A DNA stretch of 55,196 nucleotides, counting the filler, from Sluysia triapertura (lineage: Eukaryota), in assembly GCA_046118255.1 (NCBI GenBank). It is 4 parts of 4 records of this genome, joined end to end, with 100 filler letters (N's around TTAATTAATTAA, not from the genome) between each part and the next. Parts side by side here need not be neighbours in the genome. Positions count along the whole stretch, not along the records: positions 1 to 15,645 come from JBJNIA010223021.1; 3 more parts are not named here. One strand, written 5' to 3'. Both the position numbers and the translations under genes were made by a program. This document shows, piece after piece, positions 561 through 55,196 of this stretch. How positions within the stretch are numbered: position 1 is the stretch's first letter; each line of letters opens with the position of its first letter. Below the pieces are notes generated by a model, which was not told where the DNA came from, searched no databases, and saw only the letters and a program-made list of their open reading frames with translations.

Positions 561-662
561 GTTGGGATTCGAGAAGGATAAGGGTCGATATAAGGATCAA
601 GACTGAGGGTAATAAATATGGTGAATGTTATTGAAAAATTAAGATAAAATATTGTAATGAAC

Positions 663-1735
663 TGTAATGGTAAAATAAGCATAATAAATACTTGAATTAA
701 AACAAAACAATAAGAAATATGAAGAAATAACCATGTACAATGTTTTATTTGTTAAAATACTAAAGTACATTTGTTAATTAATTTAATTAAAATTTGTTTA
801 ATTTGATAACTCAGTAAAAATGTTTGCTCATGATATTGGATTGAGTGTATAATATTGAATTTTATTAGTGTTTTTTAATGACGAAGTATTGCGAAGCACG
901 TCAACGTAGATAACATAAAAATTGGTTATTTTAATTAATTTTTATATTTTAAAATTAAAAATAAATATGTTCAGTTGTCTAAGTATTAATAAAGTATACG
1001 TCAAATTGATGCTTATAGAGACTAATTCAAATATATTGTTGAACTTGACCTGCAACGTATTATGCAAAAGACTCCTGTGAGAAATAAATTTATTATTTCA
1101 TAAATTTTATCTTTAAATTAAGTTAAGCAATTACGTTATATAATAACAGTATAATAATAATTTTAAATTGTAATTAGATGATATTCAAAGGGATTCTTTA
1201 CCACAAATCCAACTATCTTTGGATAATTAGAATAATGATAATGGAAATTAAAGCTATCCATTCTCAATTTGCTGACTAGATTTTGACAGCAGTTAAATTT
1301 CTACAAGAAAAGAGAAGTGAAGCCGACATTAAGACGGAGTAAAGAAAAATCGAATTAACTTTTCATCAGTGGATAATGGTGATACTAAAGTTGTTTATTT
1401 AGTAATTGACTAAAACGAACCATTTTCTTTAGTAATATATTTCTTACTGTTTATATTTTGCATTAATACGGATGATAAAGTTTAAATAGGCTGTGCCACT
1501 CCTGGTTGTGATTCGTCTTTAAAGAATATTTTACTTATTGTACTGTTATTGTTATAAAGGATAGTTTGTATTTGTTATAAAGAGTAATTTGTATTGTCAT
1601 TGTTATAAGAATAATTTATATATTTTAGTTGTAATCTTGTGATAATATAAAGAATGTATCGAGATTGTGAATTTATTTAGTTATTGAGTTCTAATTTAAT
1701 AATTTGGAAAAATAAAAGTACTAAAAGATATTACT
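663..1735 (+). repeat. 5' LTR of the env-carrying Gypsy element
   Basis: Starts TGTAAT and ends ATTACT (expected ATTACA). Both boundaries coincide with the ends of the inverted homologous copy at 9402-11536 (e.g. TGCGAAGCACGTCAACGTAGATAAC near 890 is the reverse complement of the sequence near 11280-11305). Confidence 0.7.
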
Positions 1736-1845
1736 TAAATTTCGGTGACTCAGGAAAGTTATATTATTTAGATTTGTTTTAATCAAAGAATAAGTTTATA
1801 ATTTCAGATTTAATATTATATGACAAAAAACCCAAGAAAAGAGAA

Positions 1846-2915
1846 ATGAATATCGAACCAGCACGATTTTTTGTACTTCCACTGGAATCTTTCGATGGAA
1901 ATCCAGATGCTTTGTCAAATTTTGTAAACCAATTACCAATTTTATGCGAATGCGGTTGGCATGAATAAGCTCAGTAAAAGCGCTTTCCGCTCCATTTAAA
2001 AGGAAAAGTGCATAAGCTTATTCCCGACAAGAAAAAAATGCCTGGAAAAATTTAATTAGTGACTTTAGAAACCAATTGTTGCCTAAAGATTCTAAATTCG
2101 TTAATTTTAAAAACTTACGAAACAGGATACAAGGTAGTAAGGAAACAGTTACACAATTTTTATTTGACTTTAAACAATTAGTAAATAAGGAGTATCCAAG
2201 TTTTACACATGAAAAAAATCTAATTAATTACTGAAAAATTTATAGATTGGTAAGGAACCGATAAGAACACAGCTTTTAATGTTAGACCGAACTAATTCAA
2301 ACGATTTACTCCAAAAATCTCAAATTTAGAAAGTAGTGATGAACATTGAGCTCTCAATTCGTACCGATGTTGATAGACAAATGAATAAATATTCGAATAA
2401 TCAAAATAATTTGAAATACAATATTCTGCCGAATAATGTACGTTTAATAATTATAGAATAACATTAATATTATATGGAGTTTTAATATTAATATTATATT
2501 AATATTATATAATAATATTATATGGAGTTTTAGACAAAGTACACCATTTATTAGATCTAACGGACGAAATACGTATAATGGAGTAATGCAACAAAATAGA
2601 ATATGATTTACAAATGAACCATGTGAAATTTGCAAGAAAACAGATCATAATAATAAAAATTGTTGGTATCGAAATTCATACGATAATAACTGTAGAAGCA
2701 GTAATAATTCGGAAAATAGAAATAACCGAAAGCGTACTAAAAGTACCGTTTCTCAAGTATTATGTAATCAAGTTGATTCATTTAATGAAGAAAATAAAAA
2801 TATGAAAGAAGTAATAAAAGAGTTAATTCCACAGTTACAAAGGCAAAAATTAAACGATGAAATATCTCAGAATGACACAATAGTACGAGTGAATTTTTTA
2901 CGCTATTTACAATAA
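1846..2915 (+). pseudogene. gag: Gypsy gag (frameshifted, with stops)
   Basis: N-terminal PLESFDGNPDALSNFVNQL...CGW...FPLHLKG capsid-type motif. Perfect CX2CX4HX4C knuckle CEICKKTDHNNKNC at 2622-2663. Confidence 0.8.
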
Positions 2916-3380
2916 AAATGAAATTAAAAATAATGAAAAAGAAATGGGAAAAGAAGTAATAAACAATAAAATGGATATTGATATTATTGATGATGATAAA
3001 ATTATTACTGAATTAATTAATACTGAAGATAAAAATATAAGAAATATAATGGAATATTTAAACAAAAACCAATAGATGATATTAGTAATAGTGAAAAAAT
3101 AATATAATTTTTACAAGATAATGTGAATTTTCTTAAACCTTGCTCTTTACAATCAAAAAGCCTACTTAAAGAAGTAGGACATTACTGGCAAAATAAAAAC
3201 AATAAAGCAGTTTTACCTATTATACTGTCGCATTCAAATGGTAAATAAGTAATACAAGTGCCAATGAATATTACATGTAAAGAATTAATGTCATTAACTT
3301 TCATGTTATTTAATATATTAGATAATATGGAAGAAGATATTAGTATTGTTAAAACTGAAAATAAAATTAAGAATAATTTA

Positions 3381-3427
<47 letters not shown>

Positions 3428-3569
3428 CGATAAGGAGAATGAAGGTAATAATATTAATGATAACGCTAATGCTGCTAATAATAATGTTTATGATGATAAT
3501 AGGAATATAAATAAAAAGGTGAAAACGGAACCAACTCTAAGGCGAAATGAATTTAATAGTAATTTAAAT

Positions 3570-4218
3570 ATGTTGGCAAAATTTATGACAATAATCACAA
3601 TAATTTTAGGATTACGAATTGCAAAATCTATTAAGGCATTTGATTATGAAAATGCAACACTTGGTCCAAAGTTTTCGATAATGGATGTAGAAAAATGTCC
3701 TGACGCAAATCCAAATAAATTCATTAAACAATACTATTAAATATATCATATTTATCAAGAGAGATGATATATTTATACAAAAGCATATGAATGTGCAATA
3801 TCTAAGAAGACATCTATTAGATGGTGTGTACATAATAGTCATATTTCATTGATTAACAACATTGGAAGAGTAACACCAAAAATTGATATAATGCATTTCA
3901 AACTCATGAAATACAAATTGATACAAGAATAAGGCTTAAAGCGAAACCATGTGTTATCATACAAGAAGAAATATTCGTAGTAGGAAGTTTAGTTTATGAT
4001 GGTACTTGTGAATGTGGAGAATTTTGGAAATAAAATTCGACAAGCATTAGTTATTGATACTTATGTTATTGAAATTAAAAACACTGAAATAGCTTTTGAT
4101 CCAGACACAAAGATAATGTTTTGATGGCAAATATACAATTGTTTATGATGTGGAAAATCGTGAATGTAGTTTAGTATATTTAAAAACAATTAATTTTGAT
4201 ACAATTACAGATAACTGC
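3570..4218 (+). pseudogene. N-terminal part of a chuvirus/Monjiviricetes-like (class III-type) fusion glycoprotein, env-like
   Basis: Signal peptide MLAKFMTIITIILGLRIAKS, then IKAFD(Y<C)ENAT..FSIMDVEKCP..IYQE..KAYECAISKKTSIRWCVHNSHISL..VVGSLVYDGTCECGEF..ALVIDTYVIEI..C..ECSL..TDNC across 2 in-frame stops and frameshifts. Cys spacing matches the recalled GYDC..SLLDVGEC..C..YCGMHSH..AG..DGTC pattern. Confidence 0.75.
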
Positions 4219-5200
4219 ATTAGTCAAGTATTGCATCGATTGGAATTCGCAGGATTAAAGATTAAATTATCTAAATTTGAATGGGCAAAATCTAGTGTAT
4301 CGTTTTTAAGTCATATAGTATCAGTCAAAGGGATTCAACCAAATCGCTTTAATGTACAAAAATAAAAGATTTTCAAACCCCTAATAAAGTAAAACTATTA
4401 CACAGATATTTAGGATTAGCAGGATACTATGAAAAATTTATCGAAAATAAAATGATATGTATCTATTGATCAACCACCAGCACAATGGCTTATGACACAT
4501 AAAAATACAAGTCGATTAATACGATGGTCTCTCTTATTGCATTAGTATAATATTTAAATAAAATATAGGCAAGGAAAGTCTAACGCAAACACTGATTTTT
4601 TATCCAGATTAGATGACGAATACATGTCTTTGGCAACTTTTGTAGGACGAAAAATTAAATATTATTAAGCAGAATAATGAATTATTTAAAAAGTCAAAGG
4701 AGAACCCATATTATTTCTTCCCAAATGATATTTTAAAATATAATATAAAAGGAAAATTATTAATTGTTTTTCCAGAAGCTTTTCGGGATAACTTTTTTTT
4801 ACAAACATTATAATGGAATATTAGAAGGATATTTATCAATTAAGAAGACATTGTCTGCAATAATGAGAAGATATTATTGGGATAATTTAAAACCAGATGT
4901 TAAATAGAGGTATAATAACTGTGAAACTTGTCTACCAATAAAAAACAAAGAGATACATAAAACTTACCTTAAACCAATCCGAGCTACTTCAGGACCAATG
5001 GAAATAGATGCTATGGATGTAACGGGTCCATTACCTGAAACTATAAAAGGAAATAAATATATATTAGTATTTTCAGATTATTTTACTAAATGGCCTGAAG
5101 CAAAAGCGATGTCTGATCAAAGACCATCATAAATGGCAAAAATTTTTAAAGAAATTATTTTTAGATATGGTCCACCTAGAAAATTAATTACTGATCAAGA
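4219..5200 (+). pseudogene. pol: Gypsy pol remnant: RT C-terminus, RNase H tail, integrase zinc-binding and core
   Basis: VLHRLEFAGLKIKLSK.EWAKSSVSFL.HIVSVKGIQP; YLGLAGYY; RLIRWSL..KYR.GKSNANTDFLSR; RRYYWDNLKPDV..CETC; AMDVTGPLPETIKGNKYILVFSDYFTKWPEA..FRYGPPRKLITDQ. Confidence 0.9.
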
Positions 5201-6780
5201 TGTTGGAATTGTCAAATTAGTGTAAGAAAGTAGATAAAAGGGCAAAATAATTTAAAATATGTATAAAGAAAAGTGATATAGAATATGTGAATTATGATAT
5301 TATGAAGTATAATATTCCTAGATCAAGAATAATGAACAGTAAAATGTTTATAATGGTTTTGAAACCGAAAAACACCTTGGAGTTCCAAAGATCCTTGTTG
5401 GGTATTGAGACCCTTATGAAGACTTAAGTAGGGTTTGGAACGATTCAAGAAACTTTTGAATTTCGGAACTTTGGAATCATTTGAGACCTTGTTGATCTCT
5501 TGGAACCTTTTAATACTCTTGAGACCTTAATAAACTTTTGAGACATTCGAATAACCTTTGAAATGTTCAGAGACTAAAATTATGGTTAATGATATTAAAG
5601 ACAAATTTAACACATTAATAATTAAACTGAAAAGTAGGAAAATGAATCAGAGTGGCGAAGGTGAAAACACCTAGAGCCTCCTGAGCACCTTATAAAGTAT
5701 TTAACAACTTTATAACTATGATAAAACCTGTACACTTAGAATAAAATAAGTTAAAATAAATAATTAATTAATTAAAATCTTAATTAACCTAATTAAGAAA
5801 AATTACGTTGTGTGTATAACTTTTGAATGAGGAATGCTATGTTAAATCTTTAATTGTACATGCATGTGTTTTAATGAGACCTTTCGATGAAGATAAGGTT
5901 TGATCGAGTTCATACGAGGAAAGCCTCTATATTGAGAAAAGTCGAATTTTAATTAATTTTTAATTTAAAATGATAAAATTTTTATGTTTAGAATGATTAA
6001 GAGATGATGAGTTAGGTATAGAATGATTGCTATGAAATAGGAGAATCCAAAATGAGATTGAAATGTTTGTGAAATGGTTTGTTTGGGAATGAAAACCTTA
6101 AACATTTTCCATTAAAAAATTGAGTTTGAGGAATTCATTAAAATTAATTAAAATGTAAAAACTAAAGTTAAATTCATTATTTTTAAGTATGCCAATAATA
6201 AAAATAATTGTTATTTTAATGTTAGAAATGATTCATGAAAACATAGATCGAGTAGAGTAAAAAAGAATATGAGAGTTGATTGTTAATCCATTTGTTTTGT
6301 TTTCTTGACAGGTTGTACCATGTAAGTGTCAAAGTCGTTTTAGTCGGTTTAATCTTTAAATGAGGTTTTGGTGATTTGTATAAGAGTAATTCCTGATTGC
6401 GAATGTAGAAATGATTGGATGACATAAAACTATAAATTAGAACACTTAGGAACTTTTACTCACACACGTAAAAAGGAGACATCATCCCGAAAAGAAGATC
6501 CATGCTTTTGGTAACATTTTATTTTAATGTATTTTTTTAAATAAATATTGAATTTAATTAAGAATATTTTATTGATATGTTTAAAATAAATTTTTAAATA
6601 TTGATTTCATAAGGAATAATTTGCTATAATAGTTAACTTTTGTAGTTACTGATCTGGTTAAAGTAAATTTCTTAGATATTGTTAAAGAATATTTTGTCAT
6701 AGAGACTTAAAGTTTGTTATTGAACTACTCAAAATAAAATTTTATTTTAAATAAATATTAAGGTATATTTTGTCCCAACA
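5201..6780 (+). mobile_element. 1.58-kb LTR-like dispersed repeat, copy 1 (TGTTGGA...TCCCAACA)
   Basis: TG..CA ends with a short terminal inverted repeat. Conserved core GAAGGTGAAAACAYCTAGAGCCTCCTGA is shared with the copies at 7523 and 35719; the 5' part is shared with 29286. No coding capacity, no matching TSD. Confidence 0.7.
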
Positions 6781-9401: not shown

Positions 9402-11536
9402 TGTTGTGTCTTTTAATACTGTTTTCCTAAATTATTAAATTAAGACTCAATAATTAAATAAATTCAAAATCTCGATATGTTCTTCACGTTATCACAAGAT
9501 TACAAGTAAAATATTCTTTTTAACAACAACGATACAAATTATTCTTTATAACAATAACAATATAAATTATTATTCAATGAAGAATATTAACCAGGGTGAC
9601 ACAACTTACTTAAATTTTCGCACCATATTAATACAAAATATACTCAATATAAAATAAATCACTAGCCCTAGATCATCTAACTCTAAATATTTGTTAATCA
9701 AATACTAAAGAATAAGCCTTAATATCACCGTTAACCACGGATGAATTAAGGCAGCGTCCCTCGGCTGGAAAGTTCTGTTATCTTAAATTTAACTCTGGTC
9801 TCTGTCGTTTTTACTTCTAACTCTATGTAAAATGTAACTGCTTATATAAAAGTTTTGTGATGTAGGAAATGAAAATTAGAAGTTGAACGAGAAGAAAATC
9901 AAAGCCATATATTCTCTTTTAGTCGGCAATAAGCGAATCAATTTTACTGATTGAATTTCGACAGCAATTTCCATCTATGGTCAAATTCAATCTCATTTTA
10001 ATTATCTAAAGATTATGGGATTTGTGGTAAACAATTCAATTATCTTCTTAACATCTCTAATTTAAATTTAAAATCATTGTTACAATGCTATTGTCATAAC
10101 ATGAACTTTGTGATTTGTGACTAAATTTGAATTATATTTTAACTTTAATATTTGAATTTTACTTATTTTTGAACTTTTATTTATATTTGAATTTTATATC
10201 TGATTTTTATTATTTGGAAATATTTGAATTAAGGTAAGAAATTGTATATTAATTGTTAATTAAAAAATTATAAAATTATATTAAACTAATGTAATAAATA
10301 AATTTTAATGTTTTGTTTTAGTAAATTAAACTTTAAAGTTTTGTTTTAATCTGAAGATCAGATTAAAAACAACTGTATATAGATTTGAATTTTGTAAAAT
10401 ATCACACAATTTTTAACATAATTTTGTTATTCGTGGTCTATGGTTTCGGAACCAGTTTACTACTGAATTTTAAATAAATCCTTTTTCACGTTACGTGAGT
10501 TTAATTGTTATAAGTTAAGATATTAATAATAATATCAACGCAAAATCACACTTAAAATCTTTTTATTAAATATTTACATCTTATAATAGATCTCACGAAA
10601 AATCATTTATAAACTTATTTGATTTTTTAATTTTAACCCTTATTGAGTTAAAAATACGTAAATTGATATCATTGTAATACACGTTTTATTATTGCTTCGT
10701 AATTGTTTCGTAATAAATTATTAAAATCGAGTTTTATTGTTCAATTTATATAGTTGCAATTTAAAATAACCCAAATGATGTTATCATTATTAATTTTTGA
10801 TAGTCTCATAAAATTTTTTAATAACCAAACTTACCTCCAGACATTTTTAATTCGCTATTTAAAGATATAAAATTAGCATCACAAGCACAGTCCTTTGAGC
10901 ATCTCTTTTAGTCTTACTTAAGAAATCCTTTTATTCACAAATCCAACGCCTGGCCCTAACTGGTAAGCCCAGTACGTTGGTAAACTCACGTTAAAACTTC
11001 TGCTTTATTCTATTATTCTACTTTAAATATTTTCCACACTTAATTTGTCAACTTAAATTAAAGATAAAATTTATGAAATAATAAATCTATTTCTCACAGG
11101 AGTATTCTGCACAAATACGTTGTGCGTCACCAGTACGTTTCACTTCAAGTTCGATAATATATTTGAATTAGTATCTTTCTAAGTATCAATTTGATATATA
11201 CTTTATTAATACTTAGACATCGGAGTATATTTAACTTTAATTTTCAATTATAAAATTAATTAAAATAACTAATTTTTTCGTTATCTACGTTGACGTGCTT
11301 CGCAATATTTCATCATTAAAACACTAATAAAACTCAATATTATTTTCTAAATCCAATATCATCCCATCATAAGCAAACATTTTTATAGAATTATCAAATT
11401 AAACAAATTTTAATTAAATTAATTAACAAATGTACTTTATATTTTAACAAATGAAACCATTCAAAGGGTTATTTCTTCGTACTTCTCATTATTTTATCTT
11501 GATTTGAGTATTTTATATACTTATCTTGCTGTTACA
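9402..11536 (-). repeat. Second, inverted copy of the 663-1735 LTR, split by an insertion of about 0.9 kb (about 10100-11040)
   Basis: Minus strand starts TGTAAC at 11536 and ends ACAACA at 9402. 11040-11536 matches 663-1130 and 9402-10100 matches 1130-1735. Confidence 0.7.
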
Positions 11537-11546
11537 CTTCATAAAA

Positions 11547-11587
11547 TGGACTGACCGGGTATCGAACCCGCGACCTCTCGCTGCGCA
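11547..11587 (-). tRNA. 3' half of a tRNA-Ala gene, disrupted at the anticodon loop
   Basis: Minus strand TGCGCA GCGAG AGGTC GCGGG TTCGATA CCCGG TCAGTCC A TTTT gives the anticodon stem 3' strand, variable loop, T arm with B box, acceptor strand with U70-C71-C72-A73 (compatible with the G3:U70 Ala identity) and a Pol III terminator. Anticodon ambiguous (TGC or CGC). 5' half not found in the window. Confidence 0.75.
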
Positions 11588-12026
11588 TTTTGATGAATTG
11601 AATTGAAAACTTTTATTTTACAACAAAAAAACAAGTACGTACATAATCAAATAATATGGTACAATAAATATAAATGGATCACATTTATATAAAAGTAGTT
11701 GGTGTAATAAGGCTGAATCTGATTGTTCATTTAAGAAATTGATATTCGTGCTGATGGTGATAAGGAAAATTTTAATAATTGTTGTTGAACTATGGAGCCA
11801 CAAGTACACTATTAAAAGTCAGAAAGAACAAAGAAAGATATTAAATCACAATCACACCAATGATGAATCACAGACATACAATTAAATGGGTGAAATAAAG
11901 AAATGAGAATATAAGAAAAAATACGGGAAATAAATAAATAAAAATAAAAGAATAAAAAGAAATAAAAACAATTGAATGCAAAATTAAAAGAAGAATGAAA
12001 TGAAAATGAAAATGTTAAAGAGTATA

Positions 12027-13854: not shown

Positions 13855-14262
13855 TTATTTTATTGCAAAGGGACTCAAGAGAAGGATGTGGGTGTTTAGC
13901 TTTCGTGTCAGATGGAAGTTTAATAGAATGAGCAACAATATTATAAAGTATATCCCTTGTAGCATCGATATAGGTTGGAAAAACATTAGTACATCGGGAT
14001 TGTGCTTATATTGCAATTCAATGTCACAAATGAAGGGATTGAAATCATTAGGACCAATTTGAGTTGGATAGGGAATGACTTTATATACAAAATCTTGTTT
14101 AGTTGGGTGCACTTGTAGTGTAGTGTATGCGATCATAATTTTTTTCAGGAAGTGATATAAAATGGACATGTGACGTGGAGACGAGCGTAATGGGTCAATG
14201 ATGTAGTAGAAGTTAGAATCTCTATTGAAAATAAGAACAATCCAATGATTTTCAATATTCAA
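13855..14262 (-). pseudogene. Ulp1/SENP-like cysteine protease (peptidase C48) domain of the non-LTR element
   Basis: NHWIVLIF...FYYIIDPL...YPTQIGPND(FN<CG)PFIC matches the His-Asp-Gln-Cys motif order; catalytic Cys is mutated. Confidence 0.75.
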
Positions 14263-15579
14263 AATCCAGCTGAAATGCTCCCAACTTGAACATTACGGAG
14301 TTGGCCGTGATGGAATCAATTACTACTGAGTTAGCGCCAGAGACATATCCATCAAATAAAGTCATGATCGCGTTTAGGGAAAGTCACTCAGACCGGTGGG
14401 TGGAATCAAGGTCCTTAGTGTTGGAGTAAGAGTCAAGTTAAACCAAACTATTGAAAAGAAGGGATCAGGAGTACTTAACAATGACTTGATTTCCTTTAAA
14501 ATTATGCATCTTGAGTTGGTGACGCTTAAGGCTACTGCAATCATTACGGTTGGTTAACTCAGAGACGGTCGGAATAGGTACATCACCAATTCCACAGGAA
14601 GTATACCCAACAGTGGTAGGAGATGAGACTGTGTACAGGATCTGTGTATCTCCTTGTGGTATAAAGGTAGGACGGTGACTTTTTACCCGCACAACGAATG
14701 TGTCATGGTGTGTCATGATAAACTCTTCCCATGTCTTGATTGCTTCACATGTGCATTTTACTTTAAGATTACTCAAGGTGGTGGTGAACTGGTGTTTGGT
14801 AGTAAAATGCCTACGAACTTCCTTGAAATCAGAGCAGTTCTTAATAGTAATACCTTTCATATTGCAGTCAAGTACAGAGCACTAAATTTATCCTTTAGGA
14901 GAGATAATGATGTGAGCATTATCATTCAACTTATTGCAATAAGTTGAAGAAATGTACGTGGTACAATCACCAAGATCTGTACCATTTTCGAAAGCTGAGA
15001 GTTCGTGAGGAGTCGTGGAGATAGATTCATTGTGGAAAGTAGGAATTAAAATTTGTATCTTGAGAAAATTATGTATAGAGACGATTTGAAATTTCATTAT
15101 CATATTTGGTTTTGTAATATAAAAGTTGACTTCGTTTGTAATGCGAGATTTTATGGTGTTAATTATGAGAAAAGATGTTGGTGTGGTGTAACTAAAATTT
15201 TCTTTGTGTTATATACGAAAATAGAAGGCATTGTATTAATTTTATTTCTTTGAAGATCTATTCAAAACTATTCACAAAATAAATGAAATAAGCACCAAAT
15301 TAATATATTAGTACAGGCCTAACAAAGTGCCATTTAGTATAATGATATAATATAAATATAAATTTATTACAAAAATTAGATCTTTGTAAAATGATTATTT
15401 CTAACAAATGTGTTAAATTATTTTCAAAACCAGATTCTGCATACTACTGCTGTTTTAACAAAACGTTGTTTTTGAGCTTAATAGCGCTTATTTATATATG
15501 AAATATTATTGGGCCATTTTACCACGCTTTGTTACAAAATTAACTGACTTAATTTTAAATTTAGATAACGTTAAATTTA

Positions 15580-24979: not shown

Positions 24980-26055
24980 ATGTCTATGTTTAATTTGAAT
25001 TTTGTCAATAACATAGAAAGTGAAGATAAAATTGATAAAGAAGATGTACTGGCGGGTTTTCCAAGAAATTATGAAAAATGTATAAAGTATTATGAATTAT
25101 TGAATTTGCTTATTTCAATAACATCAGAATTAATTTTAAATTTATGCGAAGAAATGAGTCAATATCAGCGAAAAGAAACTATTTTTAATTTACTAAAAAA
25201 TCAATAAACTTAAATTTTGATGAATTAGATGAATGGGAAGAACGACAAGAATACGAAAGGGTATTAGTTGATGTAGCTCCAGATGTTATAAATGTAGATA
25301 AAGTAGAATGTCAAGATTTAAAAGAAAGTGGTTTTCAGAATTCAAAATTTCAAAATTTAGTTCACTCATTCAAAAAATCATCCAACGCGGTCGCTGTGTA
25401 TTGCTATTTGACTCAAAACCAATATATCTCTTTAATGGAAACAAATGGTAATTTATTCAAAACACAGACAGTACTCGGATCAACAAGACACCGAGCAGAA
25501 GCAATTTTACTATCAATAATATCAAATCGCTCGAAGTCTCCTTTGTATAATTACTTTAAGAGATTGTTAGAAGATATTACAATAAAGTCTACGTTTGTAA
25601 ATTTAATAGTTTCAATAATTTACAATTTAAATTTAAAACCTAATGAAAATATGTATGATAGATTTGAAATAATTGACCAAACCGAAGATTCGAAATTAAT
25701 TTTATACTACTTACCAAATAATAATGCTTTTGTCCTAAAGAGAGGTTCGGATTACAGGGTTTGTGAAGTTTATCGACTGCATGTAATCGTTTATTTATGT
25801 TTTACAATTAATTTGGTAAAGAGAAGTCAAGTCAGACAAGAGCATTACTTAGTTGGTACTATTGACGATTTAGCAGACATAGAAGCTTGTAATATCATTT
25901 TTGATTTAAATTTAGATTCAATTTTTGATCGCACTTATAATATCGTGCATCATTATTATGATAATCTTACTTTGATAACGTATTCTCATAAGCCGGATGT
26001 CGAATCTGACCTTGTAAATAATTTTGAAAGAGTGAAGAATGTAAGTCTTATATAA
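24980..26055 (+). CDS. Intronless hypothetical protein of about 358 aa with one frameshift in an A6 run (pseudogene or assembly error)
   Basis: ORF 24980-25207 connects at the A run 25195-25200 to a frame open from 25201 to 26055 (SINLNFDELDEWEERQEYER...VKNVSLI). No recognisable family. Confidence 0.55.
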
Positions 26056-29000: not shown

Positions 29001-29285
29001 TATTATATTCACAATTGTTCTTTATTATTTCCTCAGATTTTATTAATTTTGAAACTATTAAAGTTTTTTCTACTTATTTCGTAAGGTAAAGCAATGAAAA
29101 TCGTCAGTGAGTGTTACTCGATAAAGGAAAGATTAAATTCTGCCATTAACAAATTGATTAACTTAATGTAAACAATAATTTTATAACATACAAATTATAA
29201 ATTATACGATCAATATGTAATTAAAAATTTATACAATCAAAAGAAAATTTTCAATTAATTTAAATTAAAGTAGTTCAGCTGAATA

Positions 29286-29627
29286 TGTTGGGATTGTCCA
29301 GTTAGGATATAGAAAATAGGTTAAAAAGTAATAGAAATCAAACATATAAGAACAAGTGATGTAAAATACCTGAAATATTATAATATAAACATAATTAAAT
29401 ATTTCTAGAGCAAGAATAATGATCAAGAAATGTTTAGAATCATTTTGAAACCGAAGAACACCTTGGAGTTCCAAAGACATTTGTATGGTATTGAGAACCT
29501 TATGAAGATTTAAGAAATGTTTGGAAAGATGTCTTGAAGTGTGAAGATACCTTTGAACTTCTGAATCTTGGGATCATTTGAGACCTTGTTGATCTTTTGG
29601 AACCTTTGAAGACGTTTAAGACCTTAA
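29286..29627 (+). mobile_element. TGTTGG LTR-like repeat, copy 3 (5' fragment)
   Basis: TGTTGGGATTGTCCAGTTAG start; TTTTGAAACCGAA.AACACCTTGGAGTTCCAAAGA and ATCATTTGAGACCTTGTTGATC are nearly identical to 5357-5500. Confidence 0.8.
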
Positions 29628-30563
29628 TTTTTATTTATGGTTATTATAAATTTAATTTCTTTGGTAATTGTTAAATATTTCATATTAAAGATAATCATTA
29701 TTTTGTAGATTGTTTAAAATATATATTAAATTGTATTTTTTCGATTTTATCATTGATCAATAATATTAGAAAAGGATTTATTATTGTAGTAAATGTTTTT
29801 GGGAATTTCTATTATTATTGTTAGAAAAAACTTTTGTGACAGTTTAATATAAGTTCCAACAAATTCAATTAATACAAAGGAACGAAAACTATAAGATTAT
29901 TCAATGCAATGACAATAAAATTGTAATTCTTTCAACATTCTATTTATCAAAATGAATTAGTATAAATAAATGAAACTTTAAAATTATTCAGTGTAATTAA
30001 TAATAATAAAAATTGTAATTTTTGAATGATCAATTTGTAAATTATCAGAATGATAATCAACTATTTAGATTGTCATGACATTATTTTATTCTCGTAATTA
30101 AATTTTACTAAAATAAATTATACCATAAAGTTTTTACTTACTTCGTGCAAGAGTTGACACTTATATAAATTAGTAACTAATTATTATTTTGATGAAATAT
30201 CAAATTTTATATTAACTTATTGTTTTTCAACGTATTAATATGCTTGAGACGTAGAAGAATTCCAAATTTACTTTTATCCGATCAAATATCATGGATAAAT
30301 ATTATTACGAATAATGATTGTTAAGAACTTCCAAAAATTATAAACATAAAAAATTCTTTAAACTTTTTATGGTTGTCTTTTATACTCTTTGTAATACGCA
30401 TAAAACGTCTGCAATCATGACTAATTCTTGTCTTCGTATTTAAGTATTGTATTTTTTAGTTTAGATTTTTTTAGCTTTTTAGTTTCAAATTAAATAATAT
30501 AATTTTAATACAGTAATATAGTTTTAATGATAATATAATGTTAATATAATAATACTGATCTTA

Positions 30564-30663: not shown

Positions 30664-31341
30664 ACCTTGTTTTCAATTTACAAAATTTCAATTAATTTCA
30701 ATAAATTATGTTTAACACTTTCCATTTCACTTAACCATAAACATTACACAATTTTCAAACAAATCTTAAATAACTTTAAAGAAATTCGTAATCATACTGT
30801 GAAGAAACAACCACAAACAATACATCTTTCATTTAACTGTTGTTGTTCCTTCACAGTACAATTGTCTCTTTCATTTTTATTTCGTTTTCAAATATGTAGA
30901 AGTAAAAAAAGATAAAAGAAAAGATTATGTTAACATCTTTTTAAAGATATTTATGTATTTTTATCTTTATTAGTTTATAATAATAATAATAATTATTATT
31001 ATTATTATCATCATTATTATTATCATTGTTATTATTATTATCACTAATTATTATTCTCATTATCATTAACGCTATTATAATTATCTGTTATATTAGTAAT
31101 TATTAAACTGTCAATTTTGACAGTTCTCAATTAGTTTGTCGACAGTCACTATAATCAGAATTTTATAACAATATGCCAACTAGACAATTACTGATTATCC
31201 AATCAGATTTTTGTTCAGAAATTTTCACAATTACGAAGTCAAATTTTATCATAGTTTTTGAATTAAATTTAGAACGTCAAAGAATTTATTGATAGAGTAA
31301 AAAATTGAAAATCAAAATTAACGAGAGGAGCATAGTAAGTC

Positions 31342-32826
31342 ATGTTATTCACAAATACTGAGTCAATCAGAAGGTGTCTAAAGTATAAAACTGATCACGA
31401 AACATTAAAGCTTATCAAATTTGCCGATTCTATTATGCTATTTAATTTAACATGGTTCGACTGTAATTCAGCAATAAAGTATTTAAAGTATAAAGCTGAT
31501 CATGAAACATTAAAGCTTATCAAATTTGCCGATTCTATTATGCTATTTAATTTAACAAGGTTCGATTGTAATTCAGCGATAAAGTATTTAAAGCATAAAG
31601 ATAATTATAAAGCATTAAAGATTATCAAGTTCAATGATTTTATTATGCTATTAAATTTAACGTTATTCGACCATAACGAATTAGAGGCAAGATCTTTAAA
31701 GTCTGACGTCGATCATGAAGCAGTAATGATTACGAAGTTTAGCAATTCATTTACAACATTTAGTACCATATTATTGGATATTCACGGAATGATCGAAAGA
31801 CAATTTTATACATGCAGAGATGATACATTCGGCGTAATGCTATTAATTATCCAAGAAATGATCAGAAGACAAATTTGTGCACATAAAGATTATACATTTA
31901 TTGTAATGCTATTAAATGTTTCTCGAATAATGGAAGGACAGCTGTCTACACTTAAAGATGATGTATTCGGTATTATGTCATTATATAATGATGAAATAAC
32001 TACGAAGCAACCTGTTATACGTAAAGAAGCTAATGCATTCAATCTCACTAACATCGCGGATTCATTCCAGTCAATTACGCTTCTTAACCCAATCATCTAC
32101 AGATGTGATCATTTTAAGATTAAGAAAGGTAATATTTTCACGTTAAATTTTTATTATCATATTCGTCATAGCATGTATTTATATATTATTTATTGTAGCT
32201 CTTACAACTTAGAAGTTAACGAAACCAGGATTCGGAATGAGGCAACGTGTACAGGAGATTTTGCAAAACCTGAAACATTTAATAACTTAATCTCTTTATT
32301 TATCAATTTAATAAATAATTATCTTTGTTGTCATTATAAATTTACTTCGAATAATGTAAAATCTAAAAACGTTAATGGTAATCTCTTGATTCTCTACATT
32401 TTTAAATTTAAAGTTATAGATAAAACAACTAAGACCATAATTAATACTAATAAAATTAATATTGAACATAACTACAAAGTTTTTAACCTAAGAGTAGGAT
32501 TCAATATAATTATCACTCACATGAGAACATTGAAACGAATAAATCTTTTATTTCTAGCAAACAATAAAATTCTTCGTATAAAAATTACTGATTATATAAT
32601 AAACGGCAGATACGCCCTCTTAATATTTAAAAAGATTAAGTTCACGGCCATCTCTGATAAATTATGGTGTATAACAAACATCCACAAAACACTCAAATCA
32701 AACATAGACCCCATAAAGATTGTTTATCTTGGACAACTACATTTACCAATCAAAATGACCGTTTTCTTTTTTTCCAAATGCATTTTCCAATTGAACTTGT
32801 TCTACAAAACATTAGCTACCTACTGA
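31342..32826 (+). CDS. Intronless 494-aa hypothetical protein with 35-aa and 23-aa tandem repeats
   Basis: Longest uninterrupted ORF in the window. 105-nt repeats (LKYK.DHETLKLIKFADSIMLFNLT.FDCNSAIKY) about 3.5 times, then 69-nt repeats (TF.VMLL.I..MI..Q....KDD) 4 times. Confidence 0.55.
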   Translation: MLFTNTESIRRCLKYKTDHETLKLIKFADSIMLFNLTWFDCNSAIKYLKYKADHETLKLIKFADSIMLFNLTRFDCNSAIKYLKHKDNYKALKIIKFNDFIMLLNLTLFDHNELEARSLKSDVDHEAVMITKFSNSFTTFSTILLDIHGMIERQFYTCRDDTFGVMLLIIQEMIRRQICAHKDYTFIVMLLNVSRIMEGQLSTLKDDVFGIMSLYNDEITTKQPVIRKEANAFNLTNIADSFQSITLLNPIIYRCDHFKIKKGNIFTLNFYYHIRHSMYLYIIYCSSYNLEVNETRIRNEATCTGDFAKPETFNNLISLFINLINNYLCCHYKFTSNNVKSKNVNGNLLILYIFKFKVIDKTTKTIINTNKINIEHNYKVFNLRVGFNIIITHMRTLKRINLLFLANNKILRIKITDYIINGRYALLIFKKIKFTAISDKLWCITNIHKTLKSNIDPIKIVYLGQLHLPIKMTVFFFSKCIFQLNLFYKTLATY

Positions 32827-36438: not shown

Positions 36439-36879
36439 AACAGAACAACCAGAACAACCACACCAAAACAATAACACCACTCTCAATTCTTAAAAAGAAA
36501 CAAATCTTACCAAGAACAATAATTGATTCAAACACGCTATTCGAACGCCTTGTACACACCAATATCAACATAGCCACCAATTCGAAAACCCTAAACAACA
36601 GAACAATAAACATAAAAATAAAATGCACAGCGTGCAATTTAAATTCGCGCCTTAAAATTAAAAATTCTGACCCTATTAATATACTACATAGGCTAAGTAA
36701 ACACCCTCAAGCATGGTTTACTTATCAGGCGCAACCTTTACGTCCTCACTTAAGATTCAGCGATTATATCAATTAACCATCAACTACCTGGCGGCACTGA
36801 CGACGATCCTGAAATTCCACCACGTACTGAACAAGACCAAGTAACAAACATCAGTACTCCTTCGTCGTCTAAATTTTTC

Positions 36880-37728
36880 TTGGACGATACTGGCTCTCAA
36901 AGTACATGGTTTTTGGTTGTTGAAGCCATGTTTAAAACCAATTCGGTTAAACATCAAACCACAAAGTTTAATCACACGTTAGCAATGTTGCCCCAGGCAT
37001 TACTAAGTAAAATTAGCCCCAAAATCCAAGCGTGTATTGCTTCAAAATCTCCGTATGACGAACTTAAGCAAATAGTCATACAGCAATACCGCCCAAATTC
37101 GGAAAAGGTCTTCCAAGACTACTTTAAGGTACAAACATTAGGTACTATTTCACCTTCCGAATTTTTAGCAAAAATAAAAAGGGACTTAGCACCATTCGGT
37201 TGTGACATCGACGAAAATCACGATGTCTTAAAACGATTTTTCCTCGGTGCTATGCCTCTTACAGTTCAAGGCATACTAAAATCGACGAGCTGGCCAAGAT
37301 CGCCGATAACATCATTTCTGTATGGAACAAGAATCACCAACAACCTCTTCCTCTTCCAACAACCAACAACGAGACACAAAACCTTCTGCTACAAGTCCAA
37401 AATCTCACAAAACAGGTCGCAGACCTTACAAAAATTTTATGCTCAAAATCAAGAGAGAACAAGTTCTCCCACATTCTCAACGAGTTCCTCTAACTCAAAT
37501 AAATCTACTAAAAACAAAAAACCCTTTAATGGAATCTGTTACTATCACAACAGATTCCAACAACAGGCTAAATCTTGCTTACTAGGATGTAGATTTCCAC
37601 ATAAATCTACAAATTTAACAATTAAAAACTTGTGCGTATATCATGTACATTTTCAAAAAAGCTCTAAAAGATCCATGGATGGTTGCATCTACTTTAAACA
37701 AAATTTAAAACCATCATCAAAAAACTGA
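36880..37728 (+). pseudogene. gag: CsRN1-type gag
   Basis: STWFLVVEAMF...TKFNHTLAMLP...PYDELK...LGTISPSEFL; CYYHNRFQQQAKSCLLGC (C-x2-H-x9-C-x3-C). Probably an internal compensating frameshift around 37280-37440. Confidence 0.85.
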
Positions 37729-37771
37729 AATTGCCAACGTTTAAAGCGGCTAAACCGAAACAATTGGCAAT
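37719..37771 (+). promoter_or_regulatory. -1 programmed ribosomal frameshift signal (gag-pol)
   Basis: A AAA AAC heptamer (37719-37725) directly before the gag TGA; pol is in the -1 frame; downstream stem ATTGCCAA (37730-37737)/TTGGCAAT (37764-37771). Confidence 0.75.
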
Positions 37772-40090
37772 CAATGGCATCTTCACTTTGCTGCTTATTT
37801 TCACCAATTTCAAGCACCCCAAATTGGATTTTCTAATAGATACTGGAGCTGCCTTGTTTGTAATCCCTCAACACCTTATCAAAAATATACCACAGACACG
37901 TTCTTTTCTTACAGCAGCTAATGGAACAACCGTTACCTGCTACGGCTCCAGAAAATTACAATTCAAACTGCCACACTTCAATAAAAATTTCGAATGGACT
38001 TTCTTAATCGCCGCAGTCCAGAAACCGGTAATAGGAGCTGATTTTCTAACTCATTACAGACTCCAAGTCAAGTGCCACAACAAAACTTTAATAAAGTCTT
38101 TCGAACAACTTAGTCATATTAAAATCAAACTTGAGGATCTCAATGATCCAACCCGAACTATTACTCGAACAATTCAACCCAGAATACGTTCCTAAATCTG
38201 AACACTTTATAAAAACTATACCTGCATCACCATGCAGCAAAGACGACGATAATTTGCACAAAAAATATGTTTTCAGGCGGAGACGGAATTCATTGAAATG
38301 GAAAGACAAGGAATCGTGCGACGCTCTTCTTCTTCATGGGCCGCACCTCTGCAAATCGTCAAGAAGAAAGATGGGACAATAAGGATATGTGGTGACTACA
38401 TAATGTTTAATAAAGTCACTGTTCCAGACGCATATCCTATGCCACTTATAACAGACATCTTTCACAGATTCACTGGTTGCACAATATTCTCTTCAATAGA
38501 CCTCGCAAAGGTGTACCATCAAATCCCAGTACATACTGAGGATACACCAAAACAGCCGTAACAACTCCTTTCGGTCTGTTTGAGTATCTACACATGCCTT
38601 TTGGTCTACGAAATGCAGCACAAACCTTCCAGCGACACATCGATCAAGTTCTTCAAGGCCTAACTTTCACAACAGCCTATATTGATGACATCATAATTGC
38701 TTCCAGAGATTTCAAACAACATCAAACACACCTGGAACAAGTATTCCAAAGACTTTTCGACAATAATTTAATAATCAAAATCAACAAATGTCAATTTTTC
38801 AAAAATAAGATCAACTTTCTAAGCCACAACATCTCTGTTGACGGGATAGAACCACTGGAAACCCGCACAACAGTCATAAGAAACTTCCCTCAACCTAAAA
38901 CAGTTACACAAATGAGAAGTTTCCTAGGCCTAGTTAATTATTGTCGACGCTTCATCCCGAAATTATCAGAAACAATAGCAACGCTAACCGCACTGTCATC
39001 GGGAAAGAAAAATCAACAAATCAATTGGAATACCAAATCTCTGCAGTCCTTCGAATAAACAAAACAAGCAATTATGAAGATGGAAAGTTTAGCGTTTCCA
39101 CAACAACACCTACAATTAACCTTAACAACTTACGCTTCAAACACAGCAATAGGTGCGGTACTAACACAAAACCAACAAGAGACAACCAGACCAATCGAAT
39201 TTTATTCCCACAAACTTTCTGCACAACAAACCAGATATTCGGCATTCGATCGTGAATTTCTCGCAATTTATCTTTCCGTAAAACATTTCGAGTATCAATT
39301 CACGCTCAGAACAGACCACAAACCGTTGTTGCACATCTTTACAATGAAAAACCCTACTTACAACAACAGCATATCAGCTACTTGTCCAAATTCAACTTTA
39401 ACATAGAATTCATCCCGAAACAAGAAAATGTGGTCGCCGACGCATTATCACATGTAGGTTTAAAGAGCATCGAATTTCAATCAATATTCACTGTAGAGGA
39501 GTTACAAAATAATCCACCATCCAGTCTAGAAATTTCCAAATTTTCAACAAAACTATCATTACAAAATGGAATTTTCTATGACTACCAATTTTCTGGTGCT
39601 TCTCGACCAGTGTTAGGACAACAGCTCCAAATCAAAGCCTTTGAGCACATTCATAACATGACACATGCCGGAGCTAAGGCCACATATGAATTATTACACT
39701 CAAAAGTAGTATGGCCTTCAATGCGCAAAGACATCAAACACTGGTGTAAAGCCTGTTTGACTTGTCAATCGGTGAAAATACGCAAAAACATAAAACCTCA
39801 AACGCTTCACTTTCCTACAGGCCAACTCTTCGATACCATACATATGGATAAAGTCGGACCACTACCACTTACATTTTAACCATACTGGACAGACACAGCA
39901 GATGGCCCGAAGCGTTTCTAATCAGATCAGTTACAACAGACACCATATCCAGAATCTTAATAACAAACTGGATTTCAGTTTCGGTGTACCAAAAAGAATT
40001 ATCACCGATCAAAAACACTGTCACATTTTTAAACGAACAAGGATCACATAGAATCCAGCTGAAGGTACTTGATCCAGTTTAAAACTAAAA
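37731..40090 (+). pseudogene. pol: CsRN1-type pol (protease, RT, RNase H, integrase), frameshifted
   Basis: FLIDTGA; SSWAAPLQIVKKKDGTIRICGDY; YPMP; MPFGLRNAAQTFQRHID; AYIDDII; ASNTAIGAVL..YSAFDREFLAIY..TDHKPL; HNMTHAG..CLTCQ; IHMDKVGPLP; FGVPKRIITDQ followed by an internal deletion. Confidence 0.93.
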
Positions 40091-41537: not shown

Positions 41538-42905
41538 GATAATTGCTGTAACAATATTTCAAAAATTAAACAAAAATTTTTTCGACAGTGACTCCAATTT
41601 AAAAGCATCATTGCAGAATGCATTTGAGATGGGAATTCATTTTGTACAGATTTTTCAAAGTTAATAATTATGTATCTGATGATATCAAATTATATGTTCT
41701 AAATTCTCACGAAGAATATGAAAGGGATGAATCTGAATACGCTAGAGATATAAAAAAGATGATCGTAACATCTGATGATTCCAATCAATTAGTCTACCTA
41801 ATTAATTGCACTATAGATTCAATTTGTAGTAGTTATTCGAAGCCAACATTACAGCTTTTTATGATAATCAAAAATGATAATGTTAATATTCATCCTTATA
41901 AATTAGTCGATGTTATCGCGATAGTGATAATAATCCAATTAACAAAAGATGACAAACTCAACTTCGATCCGATTAATCGATTTTTTACAGTACTAGAATA
42001 AAGGATTTAAGTTATTTAACAATGAATGATAAAATTCATGAGTCAACCGATACAAGAATCCAATACCGTTTAAAATTAGAAGAAGTACGCGTCGAGATTG
42101 ATGTATCGAATAAATCCTTTAAAAATATACCAAAACTAGATTTTTCCGTTAAACAAGTTACACGACTTCTAAAATATGCTAAATTTGGCCATATTTCAAT
42201 TGCATGTAATTTAGTTATGTTATTGAAATTAGTCTCTGTTTGTGAGAAATTACTGATCAATGAAGAAGCAATTCCAGTTCTGATTAGTTATTACCTTCAA
42301 CCATTAACGCAAATCTTAAATACCAAGAAATCTTATTCTATCAAAGATAATTCTACATCGGTAAAGTTTTTACAGGAAAAAATCAATAACAGTCATTATC
42401 GAACATTGATAACAGTAAAATTCTATTTTTTAATCTTAACTACTATATTGATTTTTTAATTTTTTTAGAATTTAATCCAAGAGCTGGGCTTGCTGACATA
42501 CCGATGGATTCAGTACAGAAATCATCAAAGCTGAACAAAAATTTCAGTAAAACTTTGAAGGCAATAAAATGTATTCTCACAATATCATACAATTTAATAA
42601 ATAATAGATTTTCCATAGTTTTCAAATTCTTGATTATTAATGATTTGTGTAATAATGTAAAAATCAAATCGTCGCAAGTAAATAGCAAATTCATAAGTTA
42701 TGCAGCCCTAGATTATCAATTTGTTAAGTTTGTATATTGCGATTTCATTAAGGACGATAGATTACTACCACTCAGGCATAAGAATTTCACTTTAAGAATA
42801 TTAAAATATAAAAAGACGACATTTGAGACTCTAAGTTGGTCCTTTTTATATGAAAACGACAGTCTTCTAAACCTACATTCCTACCTCAATCAACAAAATC
42901 AATAA
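41538..42905 (+). pseudogene. Hypothetical helical protein gene, apparently frameshifted
   Basis: Three adjacent ORFs (41618-42001, 42022-42459, 42504-42905) with protein-like composition and one plausible GT-AG intron (42415-42468). Frames do not join cleanly. Confidence 0.4.
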
Positions 42906-53262: not shown

Positions 53263-55196
53263 TTAAATATTTTGATGTAAATTTAGATTAAAATTATTTT
53301 TAATGGAAATATTATTTAACGATTTTGAATCAGTCTTATCACTTAAAATTGGTATACTTAATGATTTTATGTCGTTTTTATCCCTAGTAGTTGACTTACT
53401 TAATTGTATTTCCTGAAACTTATCTATAATCAGAATCCTTAAATCATATGTTCTAATGTTAGGCCAGAAACCTAATGTATCTTCTGTTTCAGTAATTCGG
53501 TAAGCTGATAAGTGAAATAATTTGATACTTGAATGAGGGGCAATTAACTCATAGTGCAACCCATTGTATAACTCGTAGGTAATAATAATTGTATTACTTA
53601 CTATATGAACAATATCACCATCGTAACGATAAATAGTCAATGGAAATTCAACGGTTATTGATGTTTTCAGAGTTGTAGAAAATCCTTGAAAAGCGATTGG
53701 TTTGGTCCGAATTTTATGTTTCTGTGCTAATATATTAATTTCGAGTTATGTGTCAGTTCATATTCGAATCCTAAAATGAGTGTAACTTGAAATAATTGAT
53801 ACTCGAATAAGTCTTCACATGCTATCTTCCAATAAAAAACGTTGTGTCGGTAATGTGAAAGTCAGTTCCACACCAACTTTGAAGACAACATTTCATAGTA
53901 ACATTAACTATTTTTGCATTGCTCAGATTATTAGTAGCATAAATATCTTTTTGATTCTAGAGTAATTCGAGGTTGGTTATGCTTTGATATTAATCCTATC
54001 ATAGGAGTATTTTTGGCAACGCTTGTATGTCCGAAATATATGTTAAGCAGATACAAGCCACTAAAGTAGATCGTAAATTCGTTAATGGCATTCCGTTAAA
54101 CGCAAATGGATAATATCCTTCTATATCATTTTCGTATATAAGAGAAGGTGATGGTAATATCCCTGGTGGTGGATTAAAGTCAAAATGATGTAGTGCAGTA
54201 CAATGATCATCATTGTCCTTATGAGATGGTACATTCGAATAAGAACATTTATTCATGATAAATATTGTGATTAAAACAAATATAAAAATTAATGCAATTA
54301 TAAGAATTATCGCAATTGCGATCATTATCCTTAATATGTAATCATTTCTCAACATGTCAAATATTGTCGGGGTGTTTTTCGTACCTCTCAAAGCGAAATG
54401 CAAACATTCGATTTTCTTAGATGACAAATAGATTCGTGCTATTATGTGGCGTTCTTCATTATCTAGAAGGTATTCATGTGATATTCAGAAATAATCCAAG
54501 TGCTAAAACTGATTCGAGCCGGACGTAGACATGGAAATTGAATTCGAATATTACTATATAACAACTTAACTTTTACTTCTGTACCAGAGTTATAAAATTC
54601 GAAATACTCAGATTTGTAAGATTGACGGTTACATTATGCAACTGAAATTATCGTTAACAATGCTATGGGTAATAAATTATGTTTAATCCTATGAGTTCTC
54701 GAAAGATTGCTATATGCAATAAAATATACTATAGTTCCTATAACATATATTACAGCGAATAATGTCAGCATAATAAATAAACGTTTACTGGTTTTTCATT
54801 CCGTTTTTCGAATGATTTTTTCCTTAATGCAGCTGTCTTAAATGTTGAATTACAATCTAATTTCCCATTATTATTTTGTTTTGTGACATTCATATGTAAC
54901 TCATTATCGTGTTTCAATTTTTGTATGAAGTTTTGTACTACTTGCGTGTTTTCAGTATTATCTATTGTGAACGCTATTAACATAGGTCGATAAGCGTAAT
55001 GCAAACAATGTGGAACATTATCTATATGATGTGGTTTTCCTATAAGTAATGAATTGAAGTACATACAATAGATTTCAAACGTATGTCTTAAAATAATTCT
55101 CTTAGAAACGAATTCCATTTTCCAATCATGATTATAAATATTTGTAATTTCTATTTTTTGATTTCGTCCGTCATTAATTGCGATATTCATATTTCT
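53263..55196 (-). pseudogene. Decayed intronless multi-membrane, glycoprotein-like polyprotein (possible endogenous viral element or env)
   Basis: Consecutive minus-strand ORF pieces with alternating ectodomain / TM / signal-peptide-like segments and several N-x-S/T sequons. Continues beyond the window. Confidence 0.5.

Follow-up and report, generated by a model that had tools for sequence, protein, structure and literature searches.

The element at positions 1846-5198

We analyzed a 55,196-nucleotide stretch of Sluysia triapertura DNA (assembly GCA_046118255.1; four parts joined by filler), called the window here at its full length, whose plus strand carries at 1846-5198 the remains of a Ty3/gypsy retroelement with an envelope gene (env) between gag and pol. 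The window is repeat-rich, with a base composition of 26% G+C. The parts run in the order gag remnants, CCHC zinc knuckle, linker, signal-like N-terminus, glycoprotein, C-terminus of reverse transcriptase (RT), C-terminus of RNase H (RH), and integrase (IN), just as an earlier note made from the sequence alone had read them. That note had also stated that no protease (PR) follows the knuckle: indeed, neither Pfam scan of the 1846-5200 region detected one, and tblastn with P0002, the closest intact relative, found no counterpart of the P0002 protease. The features are listed below (LTR, long terminal repeat; TM, transmembrane segment; aa, amino acids; P and L numbers are our handles for related sequences).

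657..1728, plus strand: LTR-like repeat, candidate decayed 5' LTR; three blastn pieces, 68-80% identity to an inverted copy at 9409-11542
1742..1756, plus strand: candidate degraded tRNA primer-binding site directly behind the LTR-like repeat
1846..2915, plus strand: gag, interrupted by stops and frame changes; pieces similar to P0017, L002, and P0002
2622..2663, plus strand: CCHC zinc knuckle, by direct sequence reading
2894..2900, plus strand: T-rich heptamer of the -1 frameshift type near the gag stop, by pattern scan
2916..3569, plus strand: linker; 3069-3338 shares homology with the P0002 linker; (AAT)n expansion near 3381-3425
3570..3635, plus strand: internal signal-like sequence of Env, aligning with the hydrophobic stretch P0002 368-386
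3570..4206, plus strand: 5' third of an HSV (herpes simplex virus)-gB/Monjiviricetes-type fusion glycoprotein in four frame pieces, from PF24664, identity to P0002, and the env tree
4200..4218, plus strand: deletion join; the 3' part of env, TM, protease, and most of RT are gone (about 914 aa of P0002)
4213..4448, plus strand: C-terminus of RT with the beginning of the connection domain; 62-63% to P0002 1519-1595
4468..4647, plus strand: C-terminal part of RNase H, behind a second deletion (about 121 aa); 62% to P0002 1717-1777
4803..5198, plus strand: truncated integrase, with zinc finger and the beginning of the core; PF17921, PF00665; 59% to P0002 1844-1976
5197..5531, plus strand: a different repeat that interrupts integrase and begins TGTTGG at about 5200; 76% to 29282-29628

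The copy is dead and non-functional. Its damage comprises two large deletions, several small ones, many stops and frame changes, the (AAT)n expansion, and the 3' interruption, where the unrelated repeat severs integrase at about 5197-5200. The first large deletion runs from mid-Env to late RT and the second from the connection domain into RNase H; a single frame, itself containing stops, spans only 3072-3920. The position of the 657-1728 repeat upstream of gag suggests that it is the LTR, and 1742-1756, by its place just behind that repeat, is a candidate primer-binding site. No matching 3' LTR was present in the window, the 3' end of the element having been lost. The N-terminal gag pieces resembled the gag of the gag-env relatives P0017 (tblastn E 4e-5) and L002 (E 0.007-0.008), and the 3' piece matched P0002 residues 26-113 (E 4e-8). 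In the Pfam scan, Integrase_H2C2 scored over its cut-off (E 2.6e-8) and rve under it (7e-5); RVT_1 and RT_RNaseH matches were weak (E 0.04-0.06), on the same stretches that are 62-63% to P0002.

The identity of the glycoprotein rests on profile, tree, and fold evidence. Translated with X at stops, 3570-3920 gave a PF24664 Monjiviricetes_fusion match of 30.3 bits (E 1.4e-7, against a cut-off of 27) that covered profile positions 3-100 of 653. Window Env was identical to P0002 at 107 of 195 aligned residues (55%), and in the env tree the two were sisters with support 100/99. Six of the seven covered P0002 Env cysteines were kept in the window, and two more lay outside coverage. In the cysteine pattern that had been proposed for this protein, the bracketed residue of AFD[C] is absent, because this copy has lost that conserved cysteine. 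The signal-like stretch at 3570-3635 also fell below the hydropathy threshold in this copy. The P0002 ectodomain was modelled with AlphaFold2 (18 sequences; pLDDT 65.9, pTM 0.48). The best matches of this model were herpes gB in the PDB, with a top E of 4e-10 and a TM-score of about 0.3, and, in BFVD, glycoproteins of chu-like viruses (top E 1e-26). These fold matches support the prediction that P0002 Env is a class III fusogen of the chuvirus/mononegavirus type, in line with the chuvirus-like fusogen first suggested; similarity to viral fusogens, whose lack would have told against that suggestion, was found by both profile and fold.

Native gene order and alternative origins

A phmmer search with the window env piece gave 24 matches at E<=0.001, the best of which was P0002 (E 2e-23, 47%). 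P0002 is one intact 2627-aa open reading frame (ORF) that encodes CCHC, linker, hydrophobic signal, Monjiviricetes Env, TM, PR, RT, RH, and IN, with CCHC at residue 31, Env at 374-1024, PR at about 1083, RT at 1394, RH at 1615-1744, and IN at 1833-2004. By tblastn it was collinear with the window both upstream of the env/RT join (26-113 with 2607-2879, 177-561 with 3054-4118, 574-603 with 4117-4206) and downstream of it (about 1517-1595 with 4210-4448, 1717-1777 with 4468-4647, 1844-1976 with 4803-5198). When 13 window segments were compared with 21 reference proteins, P0002 ranked first in 10 of them, on either side of the join; of the other three, two lay upstream of the P0002 start and one had no match. 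Because P0002 is collinear with the window and ranks first on each side of the join, we read the window copy as derived by deletion from an element whose native order was gag-env-pol. The backbone is Ty3/gypsy: the RT end, RH, and IN of the window follow the PR-RT-RH-IN order, and the best PDB match of P0002 Pol was Ty3 Gag-Pol (E 5e-119). We consider it very probable that the locus is a dead, internally deleted Ty3/gypsy endogenous retroelement whose native order was gag-env-pol. This had been proposed in the earlier note with a single deletion; the native order stands, as read from the collinear P0002 and the complete L003 ORF, but the large deletions number two.

Other relatives share the layout. 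A scan of metagenomes confirmed at least three loci among the 593 pattern matches listed. L003 is a complete 2693-aa ORF in the order gag-env-PR-RT-RH-IN, L001 is a 5'-open 3426-aa ORF (env-PR-RT-RH-IN), and L002 is a 999-aa gag-linker ORF followed by a single TGA (L002:3058-3060) directly before the Env signal and then by env; this TGA may be a read-through site or a mutation. Env preceded PR-RT-RH-IN in one ORF in P0002, P0013, P0026, L001, and L003, and the stretch from CCHC to Env was stop-free in five of six relatives examined (P0002, P0009, P0011, P0017, and L003), the exception being L002. None of 20 sequences scanned had RT or IN ahead of env within one ORF, a scan that separate env ORFs would escape, and the order gag-PR-RT-RH-IN-env, which would have contradicted the proposal, did not appear in these relatives. 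Intact relatives thus encode Gag, linker, gB/chuvirus-type fusion Env, and Pol in one reading frame. The Gag-linker-Env polyprotein that had been suggested is encoded in them, with Pol in the same ORF as well, but the window copy itself shows no such fusion, since its gag frame ends at 2915 and the linker shifts frame.

A word-index search with the env piece, limited to proteins of 206-2000 aa and so excluding P0002, gave no matches; P0002 gave 21 pattern matches in genome contigs and the env alignment 314 in viral contigs, none of either confirmed. A region search with P0002 returned only itself; this search is insensitive, because phmmer does show relatives of P0002. Among sequencing runs the single holder listed was X1, a DNA-type run (share 0.20); no RNA-type holder was listed, which says nothing on expression. 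Its 5519 contigs, mostly 80-95% alike, covered 30 of 30 bins. Coverage of the env bins resembled that of the gag and pol bins; contig depth is no measure of copy number. On one contig of 1486 nt, about 84% alike, linker and env pieces were ordered and spaced as they are in the window.

Could the layout be the product of a chimera, either of two canonical gag-pol-env copies or of a 5' half that bears env with a 3' half from an unrelated pol, joined by recombination, template switching, or mis-assembly? The copy is heavily rearranged, the env/RT join is abrupt and unspanned among the X1 contigs listed, and the IN tree has open forks, all of which would fit such an origin. Yet in P0002 a single intact ORF holds CCHC, a homologous linker, env, and pol in that order, and the window matches P0002 best on either side of the join; RT or IN before env was absent from the 20 scanned ORFs, with the limit given above; and the window's other gypsy element (36.7-40 kb) is far more distant, at 30-42%. 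We therefore regard a chimera as highly improbable. Still harder to credit is the chance landing of a free chuvirus-like glycoprotein, as an endogenous viral element, in an env-less gypsy copy. Chuvirus glycoproteins standing alone are frequent in some animal genomes (PMC7642597). The closest relatives with readable context, however, are retroelement polyproteins, the upstream linker is homologous as well, and P0002 collinearity contradicts such an insertion. The X1 coverage of env bins, like that of gag and pol bins, also speaks against it. Moreover, the P0002 Env model was just 15-20% identical to true chu-like viruses in the fold search, against the 55% between window and P0002.

A closer variant accepts the native gag-env-pol order but makes Gag a separate ORF, with linker-Env-Pol reached by programmed -1 frameshifting or read-through and Gag made in excess. 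The heptamer A T TTT TTA lies in the gag frame at 2894, shortly upstream of the gag stop at 2915, and L002 has its single TGA directly before the Env signal. Retroelements generally require Gag in excess over Pol, which would also favor such a device. The heptamer may be regulatory or a product of decay: a slip in a T-run is expected from decay here, because the copy has many other frame breaks. The five stop-free relatives named above read straight from CCHC to Env, and Burro, a planarian element, is described as a single polyprotein (PMC6431247). We think this variant unlikely, although it deserves more weight than either of the two preceding origins.

Several observations weigh against our reading of the locus as a deleted native gag-env-pol element. 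The lead of P0002 over P0030 at the RT end was thin (61.6 versus 60.1 bits). In the IN tree, part of the phylogenetic check that had been called for, the window and P0002 sat on open forks and P0002 was nearest by path only, in contrast to the firm env tree. TM-scores of the P0002 Env model to gB were only about 0.3. The env-only matches P0003, P0004, P0006, P0008, and P0014 carry no gene-order information. No contig running from gag into the linker or from env into pol was present among the 8 X1 pieces listed of about 5700, and X1 may be the window's own source sample. The L002 TGA and the window gag stop at 2915 break Gag-Env read-through, which means either that read-through is not universal or that these copies are damaged. 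Finally, the native order assigned to this family would be one read in relatives, not on a full copy of the window's exact family.

Two side observations concern the relatives. P0002 (HBK71150.1) and P0028 are gypsy polyproteins deposited at NCBI under bacterial metagenome-assembled genome names (Flavobacteriaceae, Turicibacter), and are likely animal contigs binned as bacteria. Repeated aspartic-protease-like stretches occurred within one polyprotein in P0005, P0011, P0012, P0013, P0026, and L001, with 2 to 8 DTG-like motifs by pattern; Pfam supported 2-3 separate protease stretches in P0011-P0013, P0026, and L001.

Linker, tail module, and a possible route of expression

The N/D/K-rich linker of the window, about 218 codons long and so close to the earlier estimate of about 220, is not only low complexity: 3069-3338 was homologous to P0002 182-266 (34%, E 5e-8). 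In P0002 the ubiquitin-like part of the linker lies at 226-301, a pattern first spotted by eye in relatives. Such a domain was found in the Gag-Env linkers of L002 (1963-2190), L001 (47-280), P0002, P0011, P0014, and P0017. The L002 linker scored just under the Pfam ubiquitin cut-off (E 3e-5; 24.1 bits, cut-off 25.4), a six-row linker profile that included the window row retrieved ubiquitin and ubiquitin-like structures, and a ubiquitin-like profile built without P0002 recovered it (E 1e-4) from a set of 406 targets plus as many (406) reversed decoys. The window linker piece, which is homologous to the first half of the domain, scored E 2.4 with this profile, no better than reversed decoys. 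An atlas match for the linker (0.84) is a lead only. Some relatives also showed a weak Bcl-2-like domain immediately upstream of the Env signal.

The window copy ends before a further module that most relatives carry past integrase. Of the 11 Pol relatives examined, 8 had the integrase C-terminal motif that we used, and in these the same ORF continued beyond it into such a module (L001:9101-9958 and the tails of P0002, P0013, P0026, P0028, P0029, P0030, and L003). Signal-like and TM-like stretches were both over threshold in six of these eight tails, and six of eight had a fibronectin-III (FN3)-like motif, one written after the sequences had been viewed. The L001 ectodomain, the sole one modelled, formed two beta-sandwiches (pLDDT 71.5) that resembled fibronectin-III domains in tandem (E 1e-7 in Foldseek; Z 10.2 in VIA, with an rmsd of 2.7 across 85 residues), and L001 had one more such module between its protease copies. 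Pfam fn3 was weak, appearing in P0028 at E 0.21 and nowhere else; atlas matches for the tail (0.87-0.89, low recognition) are leads only. A fibronectin-III module in such elements was not found in the searchable literature, which leaves subscription papers, Repbase entries, and figures outside, nor by terms in the accessible text of PMC6431247 and PMC13524379; figures or domain maps of these key papers may annotate the tail module.

How might one chain yield all of these products? Gag and the linker would remain cytosolic, and the internal signal would direct Env into the endoplasmic reticulum (ER), where host signal peptidase would likely release it by cleavage. The Env TM would then bring the chain back to the cytosol for PR-RT-RH-IN, so that Pol would likely be tethered to the Env cytoplasmic tail and ride on it until released by its own protease. 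The post-integrase module, with its signal, ectodomain, and TM, would form a second surface protein, and the element would leave by budding, as an enveloped particle, to fuse into neighboring cells. A regulated frameshift or read-through after gag (heptamer at 2894; L002 TGA) is conceivable, yet five of six relatives read through.

We suggest, tentatively and at somewhat less than even odds, that one polyprotein gives rise to an envelope of two glycoproteins. One is the gB-type fusogen that lies between Gag and Pol; the other would be a post-integrase type I membrane protein that has fibronectin-III domains in tandem and could be a captured, host-like attachment or receptor-binding protein. 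The role in cell attachment is a guess. If true, this would be a division of labor between fusogen and attachment protein not found described for Ty3/gypsy elements in the literature searched, and the membrane module could explain how these elements choose target cells. The compact intact relatives P0002 and L003 may also serve as small natural models for threading a Gag-Env-Pol chain through the ER and cutting it into capsid, fusogen, and enzymes.

Published elements and neighboring features

The gene order itself, whose novelty had been implied in the earlier note, is already published (PMC6431247; PMC13524379). Burro/GYPSM1 of planarians encodes a single polyprotein, about 4900 aa in length. 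It contains Gag, motifs resembling Ubi/SUMO and BCL2, and an in-frame env that sits between gag and pol and matches mononegavirus fusion glycoproteins; the authors call this placement the first case, and they note decaying fragments in Dugesia japonica (Arkhipova and Yushenova, 2019, PMC6431247). Like Burro, the relatives P0002 and L003 encode a single polyprotein in which env sits in frame after gag and ahead of PR-RT-RH-IN, and the window copy is a broken version of this arrangement. A ubiquitin-like domain and weak Bcl-2 matches in relatives, and ankyrin repeats in P0026 (4844 aa), extend the likeness. Unlike Burro, the lineage of the window and P0002 is compact, with a single knuckle and some 340-360 codons separating CCHC from Env (about 338 in the window, 362 in P0002); MATH, BIR, ankyrin, and Bcl-2 had no Pfam matches in the window or P0002, so that neither shows the giant size and accessory domains of Burro. 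From the published description, to which our comparison is confined, the window lineage works like Burro, and we do not assign it to Burro.

"Ancient errantiviruses" with GAG-ENV-POL order and an HSV/gB-type ENV are reported from Platyhelminthes, Nematoda, and Bryozoa (Chary and Hayashi, eLife 2026, PMC13524379). The present lineage shares their Ty3/gypsy Pol, gB-type Env, and gene order, the last through P0002 and L003. By eye, on one page of supplementary file 2, about 175 residues of the N-terminal half of P0002 Env aligned gap-free and with cysteines in register with Smed_errantivirus_1/2 (Platyhelminthes C1a), whereas nematode Env rows on the same supplement page were visibly more distant. 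This Env resemblance, together with the low G+C, suggests that the host is probably a triclad flatworm. Unlike the catalogued Smed_errantivirus_1-6, the window copy is not intact: its stops, frame changes, and two large deletions bar it from a catalogue entry, though not from the lineage. The terms "polyprotein", "single ORF", "fibronectin", and "ubiquitin" were absent from the main text of that paper. Nematode endogenous retroviruses (NERVs; Sacco et al. 2022, J Gen Virol), as cited there, also place env before pol in a Ty3/gypsy element. Anakin, a mosquito BEL/Pao element with a chuvirus glycoprotein (Dezordi 2020, PMC7642597), represents capture of the same fusogen family by an LTR retroelement, but on a BEL/Pao backbone rather than the Ty3-like Pol found here; the Pfam scan of P0002 contained no BEL/Pao-specific families. 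In NERVs, gag-env-pro-pol reportedly forms one continuous ORF.

The window copy is a decayed, compact, Burro-like GAG-ENV-POL Ty3/gypsy element with a gB-type Env. Its gene order adds little, because planarian, nematode, and bryozoan elements with that order have already been published and the copy is dead.

Just downstream of the L001 polyprotein, a separate ORF (L001:10617-12065) matched an RNase_T (DEDDh-type) exonuclease at E 1.4e-5; similar accessory exonuclease ORFs are described in rotifer LTR elements (Rodriguez 2017, PMC5408684). Elsewhere in the window, 36754-40012 holds a second, distant gypsy-type element (30-42%) with a DUF7041 gag, protease motif, RT, and IN; no env match was found in the ORFs scanned there. 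A Pfam scan of 17 long ORFs outside the element revealed no marker gene of the host. On the minus strand, a short tRNA-like stretch at 11545-11590 adjoins the LTR-like repeat, and ARAGORN called no tRNA genes in the window, this stretch included. Also on the minus strand, 13855-14292 matched Ulp1/Peptidase_C48 (E 5e-5) within a GC-richer block at 12-15 kb that is probably another transposon. Long ORFs without convincing Pfam matches lie at 25189-26055, 31339-32826, 41603-42905, and 53263-55196, and the second of these contains 105-nt and 69-nt tandem repeats.

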